Of a stretch of DNA of 64,000 nt, positions 1,705 to 63,727 are shown piece by piece. How positions within the stretch are numbered: the stretch's first letter is position 1; the number at the start of each line of letters is the position of its first letter. Both the position numbers and the translations under genes were made by a program. The stretch is from assembly GCA_027450045.1 (NCBI GenBank), contig DAIDKM010000003.1:29187-93186 (forward strand). Direction: 5' to 3'. The notes beneath the pieces were generated by a model. That model made no database searches. It saw only the letters and a program-made list of their open reading frames with translations, and was not told where the DNA came from. The DNA is from Paludibacter sp. (lineage in GTDB: Bacteria; Bacteroidota; Bacteroidia; Bacteroidales; Paludibacteraceae).

Positions 1705-3561
1705 CTATCTTTTTTGTTGTGTGTTTGTTAAGACGTGATTTAGTATGGGTTGCGCTATACCTCGCAATTTGGTTTGAGTAGGGTGATTGAGTTCCAGTAC
1801 CACCACTTCATTATTCCCTTTGTGTAACCATTCGGCAGGGAGATAAAGCGTTTGTTGCGGGCCTACAGACCAGTATCGTCCCAGATTATGCCCGTTTACC
1901 CATACGCAGCCTTTTCCCCACTCTTCCATGTCTAAATAGGTATCCCCAACTTGCGATAGGGTTAATGTGCCTTTTCGCAATAGCGGCTGATTGGGTATAA
2001 CTGGGGAGTTTGTCGACTTTAACAAAGGCATTGCTTGGAAAGGGAATCGGTACATTTGCCATCCCATCAGTTCCTTCTCTTTAAACAATACCTCATGTGT
2101 TATTCCTTTATGATTGTGCAATAAATACGGACCAAAGTTGATTCTCCCAAGGTTTTCAACCAAAATATCCAATACCACTTTCCCTTTTGGCATAATAACG
2201 GCCAAACTATCCTGATTCAATCGACGATCGAGTGTTCCCACTCGTTTCCCATTGATGAAGAGAATGCCATAGTCTCGCAATTGATCAATTTTTAAGATGC
2301 CCTGTGTGCCATCACCATTCAAAACCGTACGGTAAAGCACAAATCCGTAGGCTTGATGCAATTGCTCAAAAGTAAGCGGCGATGGATTTAAAATTGGTAC
2401 AGGTAAAGCACTCATCAGATTTTGTGCTGTCGTAAAATGAATCCATGGAGTGGGTACTGCTTTCTTTGCAGGGGGAACGGCTGGTAACACGGCACCTTTG
2501 GGCAAGTGTTTTTGTATGATTGCACGGAAGGCATAGAACTTTTTCGTCGGATTTCCTGCTTCATCTAAAGGAGCATCATAATCGTAACTGCTTATTTCCG
2601 GTTCGTAAGGAGTACCGTCTTTGTAATTGGCTCCATTCATAAACCCTCGCGTTGTACCTCCATGAAACATGTACATATTGATGGAGATTCCTGCAGCCAG
2701 AACGGAATCTAATCGGGCTGCACTTGCTTCTGCCCCAACCGTGTGATGTGGCGCTCCCCACCAGTCAAACCATCCCGGATACCACTCCGATATAAAATAA
2801 GGTCCTTTCCCTTGATTTACCGAGCGAATCACTTGCTTTACCTTTGAGGGATTGTCTAACCCATTGACAGCCGGTAATAAGCCGGGTAGATGGCCATTCT
2901 CAATGACGGTTGCAGGGTCACAGGTATATAATATGCCATCAAATCCTGCTTTGCGGAACATATCCCGATTCATGGCCAAGTATTCTTTGTCATTAGAATA
3001 GAAACCATATTCATTTTCCACCTGTACCATCAGAATATTACCGCCATGATTAATTTGTAACGGGGCTAATTGTTTGCCTACGGCATCAATATACTCTTTG
3101 TATGCTGCCATATAATGTGGTTCCTTACTTCGCACCACCAAACCCGGAATGTTTTGCAACCAATAGGGATAGCCACCAAATTCCCATTCGGCACACACGT
3201 AAGGGCTGGGACGAATAATAACCCAAAGCCCTTCTTGCTGGGCCATGCGTACAAAGGCTGCTATGTCACGATTGCCCGTAAAATCAAAATGCCCGGGTTG
3301 CGGCTCCTGTTCGTTCCAAAAGACATAGGTACTGATGGTATTTAACCCCATGGCTTTGGCCATCTCCATCCGGCTTCGCCATGCTGCCCTCGGTATGCGC
3401 GTGTAATGCATCTCCCCGGAAATCATTTGCAACGGTTTTCCATCCAATAGAAATACACTGTCGCCTAAAGCAAAAGTGTGCTTGATAGGTTGCTGGGCTT
3501 GGAGAAAAGCAGCACTAACAAAAAATAAAAACAAGAACAATAATACAGAACGGACTTTCAT
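1705..3561 (-). CDS. GH35 beta-galactosidase, signal peptide (probable start MKVRS at 3561)
   Basis: ISGEMHYTRIP, IRPSPYVCAEWEFGG, MVQVENEYG, SEWYPGWFDWWG, NMYMFHGGT, SYDYDAPL and GPQQTLY motifs. Confidence 0.93.
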   Translation of the reverse strand: MKVRSVLLFLFLFFVSAAFLQAQQPIKHTFALGDSVFLLDGKPLQMISGEMHYTRIPRAAWRSRMEMAKAMGLNTISTYVFWNEQEPQPGHFDFTGNRDIAAFVRMAQQEGLWVIIRPSPYVCAEWEFGGYPYWLQNIPGLVVRSKEPHYMAAYKEYIDAVGKQLAPLQINHGGNILMVQVENEYGFYSNDKEYLAMNRDMFRKAGFDGILYTCDPATVIENGHLPGLLPAVNGLDNPSKVKQVIRSVNQGKGPYFISEWYPGWFDWWGAPHHTVGAEASAARLDSVLAAGISINMYMFHGGTTRGFMNGANYKDGTPYEPEISSYDYDAPLDEAGNPTKKFYAFRAIIQKHLPKGAVLPAVPPAKKAVPTPWIHFTTAQNLMSALPVPILNPSPLTFEQLHQAYGFVLYRTVLNGDGTQGILKIDQLRDYGILFINGKRVGTLDRRLNQDSLAVIMPKGKVVLDILVENLGRINFGPYLLHNHKGITHEVLFKEKELMGWQMYRFPFQAMPLLKSTNSPVIPNQPLLRKGTLTLSQVGDTYLDMEEWGKGCVWVNGHNLGRYWSVGPQQTLYLPAEWLHKGNNEVVVLELNHPTQTKLRGIAQPILNHVLTNTQQKR

Positions 3562-27861: not shown

Positions 27862-29007
27862 CTATTTTGTGTGTAAAATGTTAGGCAAAATAATACCAAT
27901 TTCTGCCATTGGCTTCCATTGTATAGTTCTATCGCCAAAAAAATAATTTCTGGCAGCATAACCACCGGATGCAAAAAGCGATATTCCTTTTGGAAAAGCA
28001 TATTCTGCGTTGATTCTCATCTCTCGCGAAAAGCCGCTATCACCATGAGACGAGGAAAAGAACAGCAGGTAGCTAATACCTAAATCACTACTTAAAATGA
28101 CATGGTCTATCTTATGATAAACTCCTAAACGATAAAAAATAAGACCTGATGACTCATAACGTATCGGATCGTAAGGCGTTCCAAATCCAACCATAGAGTA
28201 GGTCAAACGATTCATAAACCGAATACCTACATTATAAGTTGACACATTGCTCCAATACAGAACAGGCCGTACTTGTGTTTGTGGAGAAACGGATACTAAT
28301 CCGATTTTGACGGCATTGGTGTCAGCTGAATAATTGACTATGCCAATTTGCGCCCCTTGTAAATGTTGTGTAAAGTTTAATATACCAATTTGTATGCCGG
28401 ATAATGAAGTTGCATAATTGGCTATCCCTGCCACTTGAACTCCTTGTATGTCATGCAGTCCGAAATTAACGATTCCTGCCAACTGGACAGAAGGATGTGA
28501 TGAATTTACCACATTAAATCCTGCTGCAATTTGCATTCCCCTGAGTGTTCCTCCAACCACATTCATAAATCCTGCCACTTGAATTCCTTCTAAATCGGTG
28601 ATTTCAATATTTTGAATGGCAGATGCTTGCATACCGTGAAGGCTCCATCGGTTGATATTCATAAGGCCGCTTGTGGCTAATCCTGTAAATGGACCTCTTT
28701 GGATGTTATAAAGTCCGGCAAATGAAAACCCTTTGGCGGTGCTGTCAATTCTTGAGTAAATTCCGGCAATTTGGATGCCGTTCATTTCTCCATAGTTAAT
28801 GCCATTAAAGAGATTGAAAGAAAACCCTTGCAATGAACTTATCTTTGATTCGGGTAGTCCTAACGAAAACCATACCGGCTGATGGTGGGAAAACGGCAGT
28901 GTTGCAAAGGGATCCCAAATAGATAGGTTGACTGAATGGCTGCTTTGCTGAGCCAAGCAGCTGATAAAAAAAGACAGTAAGGCCAGTGTAATGGTTGTTC
29001 GCTTCAT
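27862..29007 (-). CDS. LA_2272-like repeat surface protein
   Basis: Signal peptide, about 9 repeats of ~15 aa of G[IVM]Q[IV]AG..N type, then a beta-rich C-terminal domain. Confidence 0.65.
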   Translation of the reverse strand: MKRTTITLALLSFFISCLAQQSSHSVNLSIWDPFATLPFSHHQPVWFSLGLPESKISSLQGFSFNLFNGINYGEMNGIQIAGIYSRIDSTAKGFSFAGLYNIQRGPFTGLATSGLMNINRWSLHGMQASAIQNIEITDLEGIQVAGFMNVVGGTLRGMQIAAGFNVVNSSHPSVQLAGIVNFGLHDIQGVQVAGIANYATSLSGIQIGILNFTQHLQGAQIGIVNYSADTNAVKIGLVSVSPQTQVRPVLYWSNVSTYNVGIRFMNRLTYSMVGFGTPYDPIRYESSGLIFYRLGVYHKIDHVILSSDLGISYLLFFSSSHGDSGFSREMRINAEYAFPKGISLFASGGYAARNYFFGDRTIQWKPMAEIGIILPNILHTK

Positions 29008-55216: not shown

Positions 55217-57637
55217 ATGAGTTATTCTTTTATCCATCGTTTGTTATTGGTGTGTTGTCTTGTTTTGATTCCATTAATCGGACTGACACAAAACGAACAA
55301 ATCATTGTAGGACAAATCATTGATCGTAAAAATCAACAACCCGTTAACAACGCAACGATCTGTTTTGAAAAAACCCTCATTGTAGCTCACAGCAACAATG
55401 AGGGCTATTTTTTTTTAAAAGGAGATGGGAATGGCGCTCGGTTAGCGGTTTCGGCAAATGGCTACAAAACCAGATTAATACGCATCAAACGAAACCGAAG
55501 TGCTTCCATTAACCTCGAACTTACCCCACTGCCTGCTTCAGCGCTCCCATTGGAACCGGTAACAGAAGATGCACTTTCAAAAGCGATTGTTGAACAAGTA
55601 ATTCAGCATAAACCAATTAACAACCCCGAAAAAGGATATCAACCTTCTACCGAATCGGAAAGACTAAAAGCTTATGCCTACAATATACCAAAAGGTTGGA
55701 TTCACGGTCAAGAAGTTGCTAAAGCGGCTACCTTGTCACTCGATTCACTTTACACACTACCTCTTTTCACGGCAGATAAAGTTTATCGCCAGCCGACATT
55801 TCCATCGGTGAGAGAAGACAAAGAATTGTTCTTCAACAAAGAGCTGACGATTTTGCCTGTCAACAAAGAGTACATGCAAAAATTAGTCGGACTATTTCTG
55901 CCGCATCAAAACTTTTATGACAACCGAGTGGTGATTTCCGGCAACTATTTTATAAGCCCTATTGCGAACGATGCGTCACTGCATTATAGTTATTTCTTAA
56001 AAGATAGCACGTTGGAACAAGGGCGCAAAATATATACCATCGGTTTTCAGCCAAAACGCAAGGGGGAATTTTTACTCAAAGGTAGTTTATCTGTCGATTC
56101 AGCTACGTTTGCCCTTACATCCATCACTGTGAGTTTGCCACGCACCATTGCCATTAATTTTGTGCATTCGATCACTATTCAACAAACATTTGCCTTTGAG
56201 CGAGGCGCGTGGTATTATCAAAAAATCAATAATTTACTTGTGCTGGATATAACGTCGATTGGTATTTTTGCACAAAAGCCACTCCAGGTTATCATAAGTA
56301 AAAACCTGCTTTTTGCACCTCCGGAAACAAACAATGACGACTTGACCATGCTTGACAAGGAGCGACGCAGCTCCTTAACAGAACCAACCAACGATTCTCT
56401 TTATCAGCGTTTAGGAAGATTTAATGACACTCATTTTATGAAATGGGCAGCCTGGACAACCGATTTCTTCATGTATCAATATGCTCACGTCGGGAAAATA
56501 GATATTGGTCCGTATAATACGCTTTATCACAATAATGTCGTGGATGGTCCCATGTTAGCTTTCGGGATGCGAACAAATCAATCGCTTTGGAAACGGTTTA
56601 GCATTGGCGGCAATGGCGGATATGCTTTTCAGGATCACAGTTGGAAATTTGGCGGCAATGCACTCTATCGGTTGCCTACCCGGCATTTTCAACAAGTTGA
56701 CATAAGATACGATAAAAACGCCTATCAAACAGGGTTTAATGAAGATATTTTTTTGGTGAGTGAAGGCAAAGTTTCGCCCAATGGGGATGATGCTTTTGCC
56801 TCTTTATTGCGTTATACCCCTGACACGGTCATCAACGAGATAGCTTCGTGGCGTTTCCGCTATCAGCGCGAATGGACACGTGAATTCAAAACTACCCTCA
56901 CGCTCTTTGATAACCGCATCTATTCCAACAAATACATTCAGTTTATCCGTGATGGTTCTCAAGTGGAGAGCTTTCTGCAACGGGGAGCGAAAATAGACTT
57001 TCGTTTTTCCCGCGATCAATTGATCTGGGACAATTGTTTTGACAGGCGCTATTTATCAAATAAATATCCAGTGTTTCACGTCCAAATTGAGGGCGGCAAT
57101 TTTCAGTTCAATCAAACAAACGGAGACTATTTGAAATTAATTGGAACGGTTAATCATACGATCTCATTCGAAGGAGGAACTATTTTCTATGTGGCTGAAG
57201 CCGGTTATATTTTGGGGAATGTGCCATACCCCTTACTTTCAATTGCCCGGGGAAATGAAACGTATGCGTTTTCCGATTACAACTTTAATTTAATGAATAA
57301 TCTGGAGTATGCCGGTGATAAATATGTACATTTGCATGTGCATTATTACTCATCAGGCCTGCTACTCAACAAGATTCCGGTCATTAAAAAGCTTGGTTTG
57401 TTAGAGTCCTTCTCTTTGAAAGTAGCTGAAGGTGGATTGCGTGATGATCACAACGAACTGATGGCGCTGCCTCAAGGCATGCAGTCAGTAGGCACAATAC
57501 CGTATGTCGAAGGAGGTGTCGGCATCTATAATATTTTGAGTTTCATCGGCGTTGAATCGGACTGGCGCATAACGCACCGCAACGATCCAAAAGCAAACAA
57601 ATGGGGAATACGCGTTTTCTTCTACATAAGTCTCTAA
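55217..57637 (+). CDS. DUF5686-type outer-membrane protein with carboxypeptidase-regulatory-like N-domain
   Basis: N-terminal IVGQIID...SNNEGYF; ISPIA...HYSYFLKDS, GNVPYPLL..ARGNET and PYVEGGVGIYNIL. Confidence 0.7.
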   Translation: MSYSFIHRLLLVCCLVLIPLIGLTQNEQIIVGQIIDRKNQQPVNNATICFEKTLIVAHSNNEGYFFLKGDGNGARLAVSANGYKTRLIRIKRNRSASINLELTPLPASALPLEPVTEDALSKAIVEQVIQHKPINNPEKGYQPSTESERLKAYAYNIPKGWIHGQEVAKAATLSLDSLYTLPLFTADKVYRQPTFPSVREDKELFFNKELTILPVNKEYMQKLVGLFLPHQNFYDNRVVISGNYFISPIANDASLHYSYFLKDSTLEQGRKIYTIGFQPKRKGEFLLKGSLSVDSATFALTSITVSLPRTIAINFVHSITIQQTFAFERGAWYYQKINNLLVLDITSIGIFAQKPLQVIISKNLLFAPPETNNDDLTMLDKERRSSLTEPTNDSLYQRLGRFNDTHFMKWAAWTTDFFMYQYAHVGKIDIGPYNTLYHNNVVDGPMLAFGMRTNQSLWKRFSIGGNGGYAFQDHSWKFGGNALYRLPTRHFQQVDIRYDKNAYQTGFNEDIFLVSEGKVSPNGDDAFASLLRYTPDTVINEIASWRFRYQREWTREFKTTLTLFDNRIYSNKYIQFIRDGSQVESFLQRGAKIDFRFSRDQLIWDNCFDRRYLSNKYPVFHVQIEGGNFQFNQTNGDYLKLIGTVNHTISFEGGTIFYVAEAGYILGNVPYPLLSIARGNETYAFSDYNFNLMNNLEYAGDKYVHLHVHYYSSGLLLNKIPVIKKLGLLESFSLKVAEGGLRDDHNELMALPQGMQSVGTIPYVEGGVGIYNILSFIGVESDWRITHRNDPKANKWGIRVFFYISL

Positions 57638-57701
57638 TTGGTTGGTTGAAAAAGAAAGTCTGATATTTCACTCTTTTTAAAAGCTATAATGGATTTACAC
57701 C

Positions 57702-58154
57702 ATGCACCGATATCATCATTTCTTTGCTAAAACCGGAGTTGGAGTGCTCTTGCTGGGCTTGCTCTTCGGATGCAACACCAACACGACCACTATTCCGCTT
57801 GCTCCGGTACAACTACAAGTCAACTTGCTTCAGGCAACAAATCTCACTGCCATTGGATCGACGGAAAGTTACATCACACCAAGCACTGGGTTAGAATATC
57901 TTGGTTATGGTGGTATTTTGGTGGTACACACGTTAAGTGACAATTATTGTGCCTTTGATTTAGCATGTCCATATGAAGCGCAGCAAACTGTCCGTGTGGT
58001 AGTTCAACCTGACTTAACCGCCAAGTGTCCTGTTTGCGGATCGGTATATCGCATCATGGATGGAACGGGTTGGCCAATCAGCGGGCCGACCAGACATAAA
58101 CTGAAGCAATACAATGTTTATCCAAATGGTTATGAGCTGAATATAACAAACTAA
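57702..58154 (+). CDS. Rieske-fold-like lipoprotein
   Basis: Lipobox LFGC; GYGGILV, AFDLACPYE, AKCPVCGSVY and G.PISGP...LKQY. Confidence 0.65.
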   Translation: MHRYHHFFAKTGVGVLLLGLLFGCNTNTTTIPLAPVQLQVNLLQATNLTAIGSTESYITPSTGLEYLGYGGILVVHTLSDNYCAFDLACPYEAQQTVRVVVQPDLTAKCPVCGSVYRIMDGTGWPISGPTRHKLKQYNVYPNGYELNITN

Positions 58155-58303
58155 TGGAAGATTCTCAAAATAGATTTAAGTACCCAAGAGAATAACGTAG
58201 AGGTTACGGGAAGATAAGAAGTTAATGAAGCAATGGCAATGGAATTCGAGAGAAAACAGACCTTAAATAGCAACTCAGCACATTATCTCATTATCAAATC
58301 AAG

Positions 58304-58708
58304 ATGGAACGAAGGGATTATTTAGAACGTGAAATAGAAAAGATGCATGCCGTAATTCAAAAGATTTTCGGGCTGCGTGTTGACAAGCCTGAAGAAGCCA
58401 GAGAATTGATTTCGACAGAAATGAATCTTTATTTTCATGTCTCGCCACCTTCTTTGGACGCTATGAGCGATGACGAATTTGTACAGTACATCCACCCGCT
58501 AAAAATCTATGCGCTGAACTTTTTAGGAGACTTACTCTTTGCATCCGTCGACCTTGAGAAACCACTCTCCACAACCGACAAAGAATCTTTGCGCAGGGTA
58601 TTGATTATCTGGGATACATGGGAGCTGAAAACAAAGACATTGGATTGGGAGAAACTGGCGTTGAAACAGAAAATAAAGGATTTGATTTCTCCTTCTGAAT
58701 CCGCATAA
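58304..58708 (+). CDS. Hypothetical helical protein
   Basis: 134-aa ORF starting MERRDYLEREIEKM; no family assigned with confidence. Confidence 0.65.
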   Translation: MERRDYLEREIEKMHAVIQKIFGLRVDKPEEARELISTEMNLYFHVSPPSLDAMSDDEFVQYIHPLKIYALNFLGDLLFASVDLEKPLSTTDKESLRRVLIIWDTWELKTKTLDWEKLALKQKIKDLISPSESA

Positions 58709-58713
58709 GGTTG

Positions 58714-59160
58714 CTATAAATTGTGATGCAACATTCGGAATTTAGCCATCTCTTCGTAAGGCGTCTCGGGTAATCCGAAATTGCAATAGGGATGAATGCT
58801 GATGCCTCCGCGCGGTAGAAACAGTCCGGTCACCTCAATGTATTTTGGATCCATCAACCGAATCATATCTTTCATGATAATATTCACGCAATCTTCGTGA
58901 AAATTGCCATGATTCCGAAAACTGAATAAATAGAGCTTCAGGCTTTTACTTTCCACCATTTTCTTTGCAGGCAGGTAATCAATCAGAATAGTCGCAAAAT
59001 CAGGTTGCCCCGTTATGGGACAAAGTGTTGTAAACTCAGGACATTGAAACCGTACCCAGTAATCGTTTTCAGGATGCTTGTTGTCAAAGGTTTCCAGCAC
59101 CGAAGGATCGTATGTTGTGGGAATTTCCGATTTTTTGCCAAGATGTTGTAAGGATTCCAT
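58714..59160 (-). CDS. queF: preQ0 reductase, type I (probable start MESLQ at 59160)
   Basis: [33 protein letters not shown] and F.PRGGI. Confidence 0.96.
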
Positions 59161-59215
59161 GATGAAGATGTTGAAAAAGTGAGCGATATATGATGACGTG
59201 TGAGGCAATTTAACT

Positions 59216-59899
59216 TTACCCGACTTCCTTAATTCTCCAGATGCTGTATGAGATTTCGCGATCGATAATATCCGTATTTTCTTTTCGCTTGATATAAATC
59301 ACCACGCGTTGCGTGACAGGCAGGATGATAATTTCGTACATGATTTTCAAAAAGGCCTGCGTAATGATCATCATGATCAATTGGTGAAACGATAAGATGG
59401 CGAAAAAGGCAATCGAAATAAAGATAGCGGAATCAGCGCTTTCGCCCACGATGGTGGAAGCGATGGCGCGTAACGAAAACTTAGCGCCATTCATGGCACG
59501 CTTCATTTTGCTCATTACATACGCGTTTAAGAAAGAGCCGACTAAAAAAGCCGACAAACTGGCAACCGCAATGCGGGGTGTTTGTGTCAGAACATGCGAG
59601 AATGCCGCTTGACCCGACCAAAAAGGAGCGGGAGGCAAAGCAACCGCAAACTGATAAAACAACACTGCGAAAAAGTTCATCCCGAAAGCCAGCCAAATCA
59701 TTAGTCGCGCTTTACGAAATCCCCATACTTCGGCAATGCAGTCGTTGATGATATAAGTCAGCGGAAATAAGAAGATGCCGGCAGGCACGGCAATAGCGCC
59801 TAACATGACAATTTTGAAAGCTACTAAATTGGAAATCAACAAACACGTGGTGAAGACCACCGTCATGAATAGAAAAAGAGGAGAAAGCGGATTTTTCAT
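59216..59899 (-). CDS. yhhQ: Queuosine precursor transporter, YhhQ/VUT family (probable start MKNPL at 59899)
   Basis: [29 protein letters not shown] and [10 protein letters not shown]; next to queF. Confidence 0.9.
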
Positions 59900-59901
59900 T
59901 G

Positions 59902-59932
59902 TCTTGTTTTTTACGTGGTTACCAAGAACACG
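59902..59932 (-). ncRNA. preQ1 class I riboswitch
   Basis: Minus strand CGUG-U-UCUUG-GUAAC-CACG-UAAAAAA-CAAGA. P1 is CGUG/CACG, the loop has GUAAC with the ligand-pairing C, there is an A-rich tail, and the pseudoknot is UCUUG/CAAGA. It lies upstream of yhhQ-queF. Confidence 0.85.
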
Positions 59933-59970
59933 GATCGTAATCGATCGATGAATAGTCAATTAAAAACGGG

Positions 59971-60052
59971 TGGGCAGTGATGGATTCGAACCACCGTAGG
60001 CGTCGCCAGCAGATTTACAGTCTGCCCCATTTGGCCACTCTGGTAACTGCCC
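59971..60052 (-). tRNA. tRNA-Tyr(GTA), CCA not encoded
   Basis: GGGCAGT/ACTGCCC acceptor stem, D arm AGTGGCCAAA, anticodon arm GCAGA-CTGTAAA-TCTGC, long variable arm, GGTTCGAATCC T arm. Confidence 0.96.
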
Positions 60053-60070
60053 GTTTTCTATAAAGGAGTG

Positions 60071-60078
60071 CAAAGATA
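60071..60078 (-). promoter_or_regulatory. -7 promoter box upstream of tRNA-Tyr
   Basis: TATCTTTG 18 nt upstream of the tRNA 5' end. Confidence 0.7.
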
Positions 60079-60087
60079 CCGAAAAAA

Positions 60088-60576
60088 TCAGAGATTCCGC
60101 TTGAGATGCACCATTTTAATGGCTGTTATGGCAGCTTCGTCGCCTTTGTTGCCATGAATGCCTCCTGCACGATCCAACGCTTGCTGCATGGTGTCCGTGG
60201 TCAATAACCCAAATATCACCGGAATATCTTGCGAAACATTGAGTTGTGTCACTCCTTGTGTGACGCCCTGACAAACGTATTCAAAATGAGGCGTGCCGCC
60301 GCGAACAACGGCTCCAAGCACAATAACAGCATCGACAGAACACTTTTCGACCAATAGTTTTGCTCCATATACCAATTCAAAGCTTCCAGGTACATGGTGA
60401 ATGACAATTTGATCGGGTGTGACGCCTGCTTTCTGAAGTGTTGCGTAAGCTCCATCCAACAAATTCTCGGTAACCTGAGGATTCCATTCCGATACGACTA
60501 TGCCGAAGCGCATGTTATCGGTCGGTGGGATAGATGATGAATCGTATGTTGAGAGGTTATGATAAGCAGTTGCCAT
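60088..60576 (-). CDS. ribH: 6,7-dimethyl-8-ribityllumazine synthase
   Basis: [36 protein letters not shown] and HGNKG.E. Confidence 0.97.
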
Positions 60577-63079: not shown

Positions 63080-63727
63080 TTAAAATTTCAAGCCAGCTCT
63101 GACTGATAATGATCCAGCCGTCCCATGAACATCTTTCGTAGTTTGATAATCATGATATTGTGCATTTTGCATATTGTATCCAGCCATAAAGAATAATACC
63201 GTTTTCTTAGTCAGATAAATATCCATCCCGAAAGAAGGCTCGGCCATAAATCCATACATATTTCTTAAATCACCTTGCCCGATATCAAAAGCATAGCCGA
63301 TATTCCCTGCCACAAATGGAGAAACAAGTCCTTTCGACAAAGTTATTTTTACTTGTAAGAATAATGGCAACAAAATATTACCTCCATAATTATCAAAATC
63401 ATGTGACGTTACATCATAGTACATTGATGATTCATTAGGAAAATAAACAGGAGAATAGTTATATAGTCTCATTTTGTTACATAAAGCGTTGGCATACCTG
63501 GCTCCAATCCCAACTCCTGCAAAAATGTATTGATTAAGTCTGACGCCATTTATCATATCAATTTCATAGGAGCTCTTGGTGAATTCATCTAACCCGATAA
63601 ATACTCCGGCCTCAAAAGACTTTTCATAACTAACCTGAGCTTTTATATAAGAACAACTTATCATTATCGAAAAATAGTTGCTATAAAGCGCCAGGATTCT
63701 TTTAATCGCGTCCCTCTGGTTTTGCAT
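63080..63727 (-). CDS. Outer-membrane beta-barrel-like hypothetical protein (start uncertain)
   Basis: Alternating beta-strand pattern (FAGVGIG, LPLFLQ, PFVAGNIGY, FFMAGYN) and C-terminal VRAGLKF. Confidence 0.65.
   Translation of the reverse strand: MQNQRDAIKRILALYSNYFSIMISCSYIKAQVSYEKSFEAGVFIGLDEFTKSSYEIDMINGVRLNQYIFAGVGIGARYANALCNKMRLYNYSPVYFPNESSMYYDVTSHDFDNYGGNILLPLFLQVKITLSKGLVSPFVAGNIGYAFDIGQGDLRNMYGFMAEPSFGMDIYLTKKTVLFFMAGYNMQNAQYHDYQTTKDVHGTAGSLSVRAGLKF

Follow-up and report, generated by a model that had tools for sequence, protein, structure and literature searches.

A tRNA-Tyr promoter that probably also serves a preQ1-type aptamer and the yhhQ-queF queuosine salvage genes in a Paludibacter/Microbacter-like clade

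A locus joining a tRNA-Tyr(GUA) gene, a candidate preQ1 riboswitch and the queuosine salvage genes yhhQ and queF was analysed in 64,000 nucleotides (nt) of a Paludibacter sp. contig (assembly GCA_027450045.1, contig DAIDKM010000003.1, positions 29,187 to 93,186 of the forward strand), the whole of which is referred to here as the window. All the elements lie on the minus strand, in the order ribH, a -7 promoter box, tRNA-Tyr(GUA), a 38-nt spacer, the aptamer, yhhQ and queF, and from the box onward they have the positions and identities that an earlier note on this DNA, made from the letters alone, had assigned. With moderate confidence, it is proposed that the ancestral promoter of the ribH-linked tRNA-Tyr also drives the downstream salvage genes, and with fairly good confidence we infer that tRNA-Tyr, the aptamer and yhhQ-queF are co-transcribed. 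The parts of the locus are listed below in window coordinates.

60088..60576, minus strand: ribH (lumazine synthase), the upstream neighbour; Pfam PF00885 (DMRL_synthase), 3.7e-54
60071..60078, minus strand: -7 promoter box TATCTTTG, of the Bacteroidota form TAnnTTTG; pattern match
59971..60052, minus strand: tRNA-Tyr(GUA) gene; ARAGORN (called as 60052..59969) and Rfam RF00005 (56.6 bits)
59933..59970, minus strand: tRNA trailer and mRNA leader of 38 nt, comprising CCC, G, a U5 tract and a P0-like hairpin; sequence read
59966..59962, minus strand: U5 tract, inside the 38-nt spacer
59946..59933, minus strand: P0-like hairpin GAUCG-AUUA-CGAUC, adjoining the aptamer; terminator scan; kept through G-U changes in loci L081-L083
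59903..59932, minus strand: preQ1-I type II-like aptamer; comparative parse of 91 loci
59216..59899, minus strand: yhhQ (COG1738/Vut_1), predicted queuosine precursor (preQ0/preQ1) transporter of 227 amino acids; Pfam, TIGRFAM and homologue names
58714..59163, minus strand: queF (unimodular QueF, preQ0 reductase / preQ1 synthase), 149 amino acids, ATG at 59163; Pfam and TIGRFAM

A single promoter box ahead of the tRNA gene

The window was compared with 80 species-representative genome loci carrying YhhQ relatives, eight metagenome loci and further contigs (locus numbers with the prefix L). A Paludibacter/Microbacter-like clade, made up of the window and 12 fetched loci, about 11 of them distinct, showed the layout in every member, with YhhQ identities to the window of 71-91%.

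The TATCTTTG box of the window (60078..60071) lies 9 nt past the ribH stop codon and ends 18 nt ahead of the tRNA. It fits the Bacteroidota -7 consensus TAnnTTTG (PMC7366714, PMC6847099) and, by pattern match, is the sole occurrence on the minus strand across 56895-60271, bearing out the single -7 box that the earlier note had seen upstream of the tRNA. The window as a whole contains 83 such boxes (about one per 1.5 kilobases (kb) per strand), where shuffled sequences gave 67 +/- 8, and the chance of a random box in the 30 nt before the tRNA is roughly 2%. A box was located 14-19 nt upstream of tRNA-Tyr in all 11 clade loci measured; it also precedes the tRNA in L097 and L098, in the Dysgonomonas outgroup L100 (at a distance of 17 nt) and in the Tannerella locus L102. 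Tested for sigma-ABfr elements, the -7 box was present and conserved, while the sequence read had no TTTG at -33, a motif likewise not recovered genome-wide in F. johnsoniae (PMC7366714).

The spacer (59970..59933) measures exactly 38 nt from discriminator base A59971 to aptamer stem P1, the length given in the earlier note, and contains no TAnnTTTG even when one mismatch is allowed, which extends that note's observation of no second box. Spacers ranged from 22 to 88 nt in the 11 clade loci measured, none of them with a canonical box, and the frequency of one-mismatch matches in clade spacers was that of the background (5 of 404 positions vs 0.8%). With the remaining members included, L097 (Microbacter margulisiae), considered below, is the only one of 13 clade loci to have a canonical box in its spacer. 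The spacers of L087 and L089, only 24 and 22 nt long, are too short to hold a separate promoter outside the invariant tRNA.

Outside the clade the box occupies a different place. Of 81 loci (the 80 genome loci plus the window), 70 had a TAnnTTTG within 100 nt upstream of the aptamer, at 6-77 nt, all of them outside the tRNA-Tyr clade (70/78), whereas the window and its relatives L001 and L002 had none closer than 138-153 nt, where the box lies upstream of the tRNA. The nearest tRNA-less outgroup loci, L088 and L093, have their own TATCTTTG 10 nt before the aptamer. Because the box is near the aptamer in 70 of the 78 loci outside the clade and upstream of the tRNA inside it, the tRNA and the riboswitch-led mRNA probably share a single promoter.

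Distribution and origin of the tRNA linkage

Among the 80 genome loci, a same-strand tRNA-Tyr directly upstream was detected only in L001 and L002 (YhhQ identity 78-79%). Look-ups in metagenomes and contigs extended the set by L081-L085, L087, L089 (Microbacter sp.), L090 (Paludibacter jiangxiensis), L097 (Microbacter margulisiae) and L098. No queuosine-substrate tRNA was found on the same strand near yhhQ-queF in the 78 other genome loci and five outgroup loci (L088, L093-L096); the nearest of the latter, L088, L093 and L094 (73% YhhQ identity), have folD upstream and no tRNA, and L095 and L096 (60%) also have no tRNA. Thus, in the loci surveyed, the linkage was confined to the Paludibacter/Microbacter-like clade, where it appears to be a roughly family-level trait of single origin, not a general Bacteroidota feature.

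The outgroups point to how the layout may have arisen. Dysgonomonas L100 and Tannerella L102 carry TPR-ribH followed by TACCTTTG, tRNA-Tyr and tRNA-Gly(UCC), and in L100 this tRNA operon ends in a canonical intrinsic terminator with a stem of 11 base pairs (bp) and T7. The window, L081-L083, L089 and L097 carry TPR-ribH followed by the box, tRNA-Tyr and aptamer-yhhQ-queF. Since tRNA-Tyr and its promoter already follow ribH in Dysgonomonas and Tannerella, they are older than the yhhQ linkage, and the order ribH, promoter, tRNA-Tyr, tRNA-Gly, terminator is the older arrangement. The aptamer-yhhQ-queF module would then have landed in the tRNA-Tyr 3' flank, where the outgroups have tRNA-Gly and the terminator; tRNA 3' flanks are a known kind of rearrangement hot spot. 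A tyrosine-recombinase/integrase gene was observed directly after tRNA-Gly in L100 (3509-5025) and L102 (2999-4515), and the tRNA flank of these two loci has the appearance of a mobile-element integration site. The layout looks like a one-off relocation beside an old tRNA gene. Once the fusion had occurred, separation would silence yhhQ-queF, and promoter dependence alone explains why the layout has survived spacer turnover and the insertions that lie ahead of the tRNA in L090 and L098.

Two arrangements outside the clade show the aptamer at other internal positions. The Tannerella metagenome-assembled genome (MAG) L036 has, at 2704-2970, a box, tRNA-Ala(CGC), 148 nt without a box, the aptamer and yhhQ, and would represent an independent tRNA-led version with a non-queuosine tRNA. 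Odoribacter loci L040, L041, L048 and L061 (~2560-2970) have the aptamer 25-80 nt after an open reading frame (ORF) of about 100 amino acids, with no TAnnTTTG within 300-400 nt of the aptamer, and here the riboswitch appears to lie inside an operon. Judging from these cases, the aptamer evidently functions at internal positions, and what stands upstream of it can be something other than a queuosine-substrate tRNA; such positions would fit a translational switch that does not require a primary 5' end.

The yhhQ leader resembles a class I type II preQ1 aptamer

Read from 59932, the RNA is CGUG-UU-CUUG-GUAAC-CACG-UAAAAAA-CAAG-ACA-AUG, the AUG at 59899 opening yhhQ. P1 is formed by CGUG (59932..59929) with CACG (59917..59914), L1 is UU, and P2 is formed by CUUG (59926..59923) with CAAG (59906..59903), which a U59927-A59902 pair could extend. 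L2 (GUAAC) ends in the 'AC' of type II (A59919, C59918) and L3 is UAAAAAA (59913..59907). The aptamer ends 3 nt before the AUG in the window; across all the loci with a yhhQ leader this distance is 0-11 nt, and in L003-L080 the element lies at about 2940-3000. No second aptamer was found in the 64-kb window.

The Rfam model RF00522 (PreQ1) gave no match in the window at the gathering threshold, nor at E <= 10 on 401 nt, and none in 20 other Bacteroidales loci, including Bacteroides and Phocaeicola (0/20). The assignment is based instead on comparative evidence, with segments parsed by our own regular expression, which leans towards the model. An H-type pseudoknot with a short P1, a loop-to-3'-tail P2 and an A-rich L3 was parsed in all 91 Bacteroidales yhhQ leaders. 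P1 was CGUG/CACG in 89 loci, CGAG/CUCG in one (L076) and AGUG/CACU in one (L077); both changes are double and compensatory, and no uncompensated change was seen in the 91 loci. P2 was CUUG/CAAG in 47 loci, CUAG/CAGG in 33, CCAG/CAGG in four, CUAG/CAAG in three, CCAG/CAAG in two and GUUG/CAAU in two. L3 was UAAAAAA in 85 loci and L2 ended in AC in 91/91. Alignments of the aptamer made with MAFFT were not used for the pair counts, as they misplaced the P1 5' strand of Bacteroides-type sequences, and the segment parse was used in their place. The GUUG/CAAU variant of P2 was common to L088 (~2470-2503) and L032 (576-615); in L088 the P2 3' strand overlaps the AUG (CAAUG), and the start codon would belong to the pseudoknot.

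An 'AC' just 5' of the P1 3' strand is the class I type II signature, its C pairing with the ligand (PMC11625349); type I preQ1-I riboswitches occur in Bacteroidota and type II has a similar phylogenetic distribution (PMC11625349), and yhhQ is a known preQ1 riboswitch target (PMC5372724; PMC11625349). Because of the 91-locus architecture, the 'AC' and the compensatory changes, the leader element is interpreted as a class I type II-like preQ1 aptamer missed by the Rfam model, which would bind preQ1. The preQ1 riboswitch of the earlier note is thereby upheld on comparative grounds, not as an Rfam match.

Adenines at -3, -6, -12 and -13 promote initiation in Bacteroidota without Shine-Dalgarno (SD) sequences (PMC6847099). 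The tail and P2 span -4 to -17, and the reported initiation adenines fall within L3 and P2. Because the pseudoknot covers this A-rich initiation region, translational control by occlusion is the likely expression platform.

The tRNA, its 3' end and termination

The tRNA-Tyr has the long variable arm of bacterial class II, a G1-C72 pair, discriminator A59971 and the anticodon G60018 U60017 A60016, with G60018 as the wobble base; its sequence is near invariant in the clade, the differences being only in the variable arm. No clade member encodes CCA, and in the window the bases after the discriminator are CCC G. RNase Z matures CCA-less tRNAs by cutting after the discriminator (PMC8549757). Since CCA is not encoded in the clade, a cut of the RNase Z type at this point would be followed by CCA addition.

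The U5 tract that the earlier note had placed after the tRNA was found at 59966..59962; most clade members have a tract of U5-U9 behind the tRNA, which may cause partial termination, and three of the 11 loci (L002, L084 and L085) have none. The same note had described a leader AAAAC and a trailer GUUUU extending the acceptor stem; the pairing is present, but it needs a 4-nt ACCC bulge and otherwise occurs only in the closest relatives, L081-L083, so it was rejected as a defining feature, not being clade-wide. A terminator scan, which over-calls on this T-rich strand (9 found vs 2.4 expected), detected no GC hairpin with a U tract between tRNA and aptamer, its one call there being the weak P0 hairpin. 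Folding the precursor thermodynamically was uninformative (z = -0.11).

Transcript data

Public runs were searched with the window and L083, and eight metatranscriptome runs were compared with one or the other. Fragments of yhhQ and queF were present at low depth, indicating that the genes are expressed. No contig in the eight metatranscriptome runs crossed the tRNA-aptamer junction, and junction words occurred in no RNA run.

Metatranscriptome contigs from runs X11, X19, X28 and X46, of mine drainage and peat, matched the tRNA region (window 59970-60061 / L083 2349-2431) and showed the same or nearly the same tRNA-Tyr, then AAATAATTATT and a second tRNA (GCGGGAATAGCTCAGTCGA...); they stem either from another copy of tRNA-Tyr in these organisms or from a Tyr-Gly pair in relatives. 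RNA contigs matching the tRNA were discarded as junction evidence, their context being another one, tRNA-Tyr followed by tRNA-Gly. A 183-nt contig of RNA run X27 (L083 2349-2438), from an unsampled relative, begins 65 nt ahead of the tRNA, takes in the TATCTTTG box and extends through the tRNA into 35 nt of trailer; it reflects either read-through from upstream or DNA carry-over. Contigs from runs X4 and X50 extend over the junction; the type of these runs is unstated and the coverage low and even, so they are probably DNA and were not counted as RNA.

A model for the locus

According to the favoured model, RNA polymerase would start a few nt past the TATCTTTG box and transcribe the tRNA, and a fraction of the polymerases would pass through the 38-nt U-rich spacer, which has neither a hairpin terminator nor a second promoter, into the aptamer, yhhQ and queF. 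RNase P would cut the tRNA 5' end and an RNase Z-type enzyme would cut after the discriminator, CCA being added later; the two cuts would release the tRNA and leave an mRNA headed by the aptamer and bearing a 5' monophosphate. At high preQ1, the pseudoknot would fold, with the A-tract docked on P1 and CAAG paired with the loop, burying the A-rich -4 to -17 initiation region of this SD-less system and blocking yhhQ translation. As to its history, a promoter-less aptamer-yhhQ-queF module would have replaced tRNA-Gly and the terminator 3' of tRNA-Tyr once, and the dependence of the salvage genes on the promoter of the tRNA would have kept the layout in place. The simplest view of the tRNA being itself a queuosine substrate is that this is a coincidence.

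Alternative explanations

Several observations weigh against the favoured model. A canonical TATTTTTG is present in the spacer of L097 (3621-3628), 13 nt before the aptamer, within a tandemly duplicated T-rich GAT(A/C)TTTTT element between tRNA-Tyr and the aptamer, and might act as a second, internal promoter found in Microbacter margulisiae alone; the spacers of L081-L083 contain a one-mismatch TTTATTTG, and some members of the clade may therefore have an internal promoter. Bacteroidota promoters can depart from TAnnTTTG. Read-through from ribH, whose stop is 9 nt from the box without a terminator, is possible; the U5 tract directly after the window tRNA could cause substantial termination; the trailer opens with CC, a partial likeness to the CCA anti-determinant of RNase Z; and the RNA runs yielded no junction contig. 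With part of this evidence, the locus could be divided into two transcription units, the tRNA ending at the U-rich tract, with its closed acceptor stem perhaps serving as the terminator hairpin, and yhhQ-queF having its own promoter, non-consensus or read by an alternative sigma factor, within the spacer or the tRNA 3' half. This division is considered unlikely, given that a canonical spacer box is missing from 12 of 13 clade loci, that near-match boxes occur at background frequency, that the 22-24 nt spacers of L087 and L089 could not fit -33 and -7 elements outside the invariant tRNA, that L002, L084 and L085 have no U tract, and that no GC hairpin stands right before the U tract. The one promoter and one precursor RNA proposed by the earlier note thus agree with the motif distribution, the short spacers and the lack of a hairpin terminator, although a transcript spanning the junction was not found in the RNA runs.

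The earlier note had further suggested that the precursor couples tRNA supply to the supply of its modification. Under such adaptive coupling, the co-transcript would have been selected because it ties the output of a queuosine-substrate tRNA to its modification supply, with riboswitch feedback scaling salvage to demand; tRNA-Tyr does belong to one of only four queuosine-substrate families (those with GUN anticodons), and the linkage persists to 71% YhhQ identity, across a spacer turnover of 22-88 nt and upstream insertions. The linkage nonetheless has a single origin, for which a GUN-tRNA neighbour would be expected by chance in about 10% of cases (our own estimate, not a computed value); tRNA-Tyr and its promoter stood after ribH before yhhQ arrived; the equivalent position holds the non-queuosine tRNA-Ala(CGC) in L036 and an ORF in Odoribacter; the other loci surveyed (78 genome loci, L088 and L093-L096) keep yhhQ-queF apart from same-strand queuosine-substrate tRNAs; and promoter dependence alone accounts for retention. 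Coupling is therefore judged improbable. Its elaboration as a feed-forward device, in which a growth-rate-controlled tRNA-Tyr promoter sets the level of yhhQ-queF mRNA, RNase Z makes the 5'-monophosphate mRNA and the aptamer trims translation to the precursor pool, so that a tRNA, a sensor for the precursor of its modification and the salvage genes would share one precursor RNA, is regarded as doubtful. The idea that the leader is no preQ1 sensor at all, but only an element conserved in Bacteroidales yhhQ for translation initiation or stability, could draw on the Rfam score, which in a 79-nt search was 9.9 bits vs a gathering threshold of 39 (E = 6.9, the alignment covering the tail alone) and which also counts against the riboswitch in the favoured model, on the failure of all 20 other loci to reach gathering, and on a P1 of 4 bp so nearly invariant that its covariation power is low. 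It is nevertheless very improbable, as the class I type II architecture is matched point by point with 'AC' in 91/91 loci, both P1 double substitutions are compensatory, P2 shows several pair types, and the gene family is already under known preQ1 riboswitch control (PMC5372724, PMC11625349).

Gene content around the locus

The YhhQ product matched PF02592 (Vut_1) at 7.6e-50, with 169.7 bits vs a cut-off of 27.2, and the TIGR00697 equivalog with 107.5 bits vs 50.95, passing both, and its homologues carry the name queuosine precursor transporter. QueF matched PF14489 (1.4e-32) and passed the TIGR03139 equivalog cut-off (170 bits vs 86.9). The two genes are separated by 52 nt, and yhhQ was followed by queF in every locus with called genes listed. 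No further queuosine genes were found among 10 size-matched ORFs of the window.

Convergent with queF are two plus-strand ORFs of 150 and 134 amino acids (57702-58154 and 58304-58708) without a Pfam match; the latter also had no NCBIfam match, and its stop is 5 nt from that of queF. Small unannotated ORFs, beside a DUF5686 protein, occupy the same positions in the Microbacter loci L089 and L097. Elsewhere in the window, minus-strand ORFs of 381 (27862-29007) and 215 (63080-63727) amino acids matched no Pfam family at E <= 1e-5.

Comparison with known systems

The closest operon is thrU-tyrU-glyT-thrT-tufB of E. coli and Salmonella (PMC6134099), where one promoter likewise precedes tRNA genes, tRNA-Tyr among them, and then a function-related protein gene, and where the tRNAs must also be cut from a transcript bearing an mRNA. 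That operon has four tRNAs, no riboswitch and an experimentally characterised co-transcription, whereas the window has one tRNA, an aptamer 38 nt downstream and a predicted co-transcript.

The leader shares with preQ1-I type II riboswitches (RF00522; Thermoanaerobacter tengcongensis, Bacillus subtilis; PMC11625349) a very small H-type pseudoknot, a short P1, a P2 between loop and 3' tail, an A-rich L3, the 'AC' and its place in a queuosine-gene leader. Unlike them, it has a P1 of only 4 bp in the window and scores far under the Rfam threshold, and its platform would bury an A-rich, SD-less initiation region instead of a Shine-Dalgarno sequence. The type III preQ1-I riboswitch upstream of E. 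coli yhhQ (PMC10622847; PMC5372724) resembles it in preceding a COG1738 gene, in having a class I pseudoknot at the start codon and in translational control, here predicted; it is another subtype, and in E. coli there is SD sequestration, an own promoter and no upstream tRNA.

Within the order, the locus contains the same aptamer-yhhQ-queF module as the standard Bacteroidales yhhQ-queF locus (70/78 outside the clade) and the same ribH-linked tRNA-Tyr, with TAnnTTTG 14-19 nt upstream, as the standard ribH, tRNA-Tyr, tRNA-Gly, terminator locus (L100, L102). Unlike both, the clade of the window fuses the two, the module being without its own box and tRNA-Gly and the terminator being gone.

Significance

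The locus varies, in one lineage, on the tRNA-mRNA operons already known. Its novelty lies in combining, within a single Bacteroidales lineage, one tRNA, a riboswitch and salvage genes for that tRNA's own modification; no such arrangement was found in the literature searched. If the co-transcript is real, it would be a natural case in which tRNA 3' processing makes the 5' end of a riboswitch-controlled mRNA, and in which the excised tRNA is also a substrate of the pathway served by that mRNA. The locus would then offer a compact system for studying how the strength of a tRNA promoter, processing by RNase P/Z and translational control by a riboswitch act together in SD-less Bacteroidota.

Two further points hold regardless of co-transcription. 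The conserved preQ1-I type II-like aptamer of Bacteroidales yhhQ-queF, gut Bacteroides included, would mark a gap in Rfam annotation, and annotations of gut Bacteroidales that rely on Rfam probably lack these riboswitches. The fusion itself suggests how an operon may lose its own promoter and become dependent on that of a tRNA, after relocation to the ribH-tRNA-Tyr flank.

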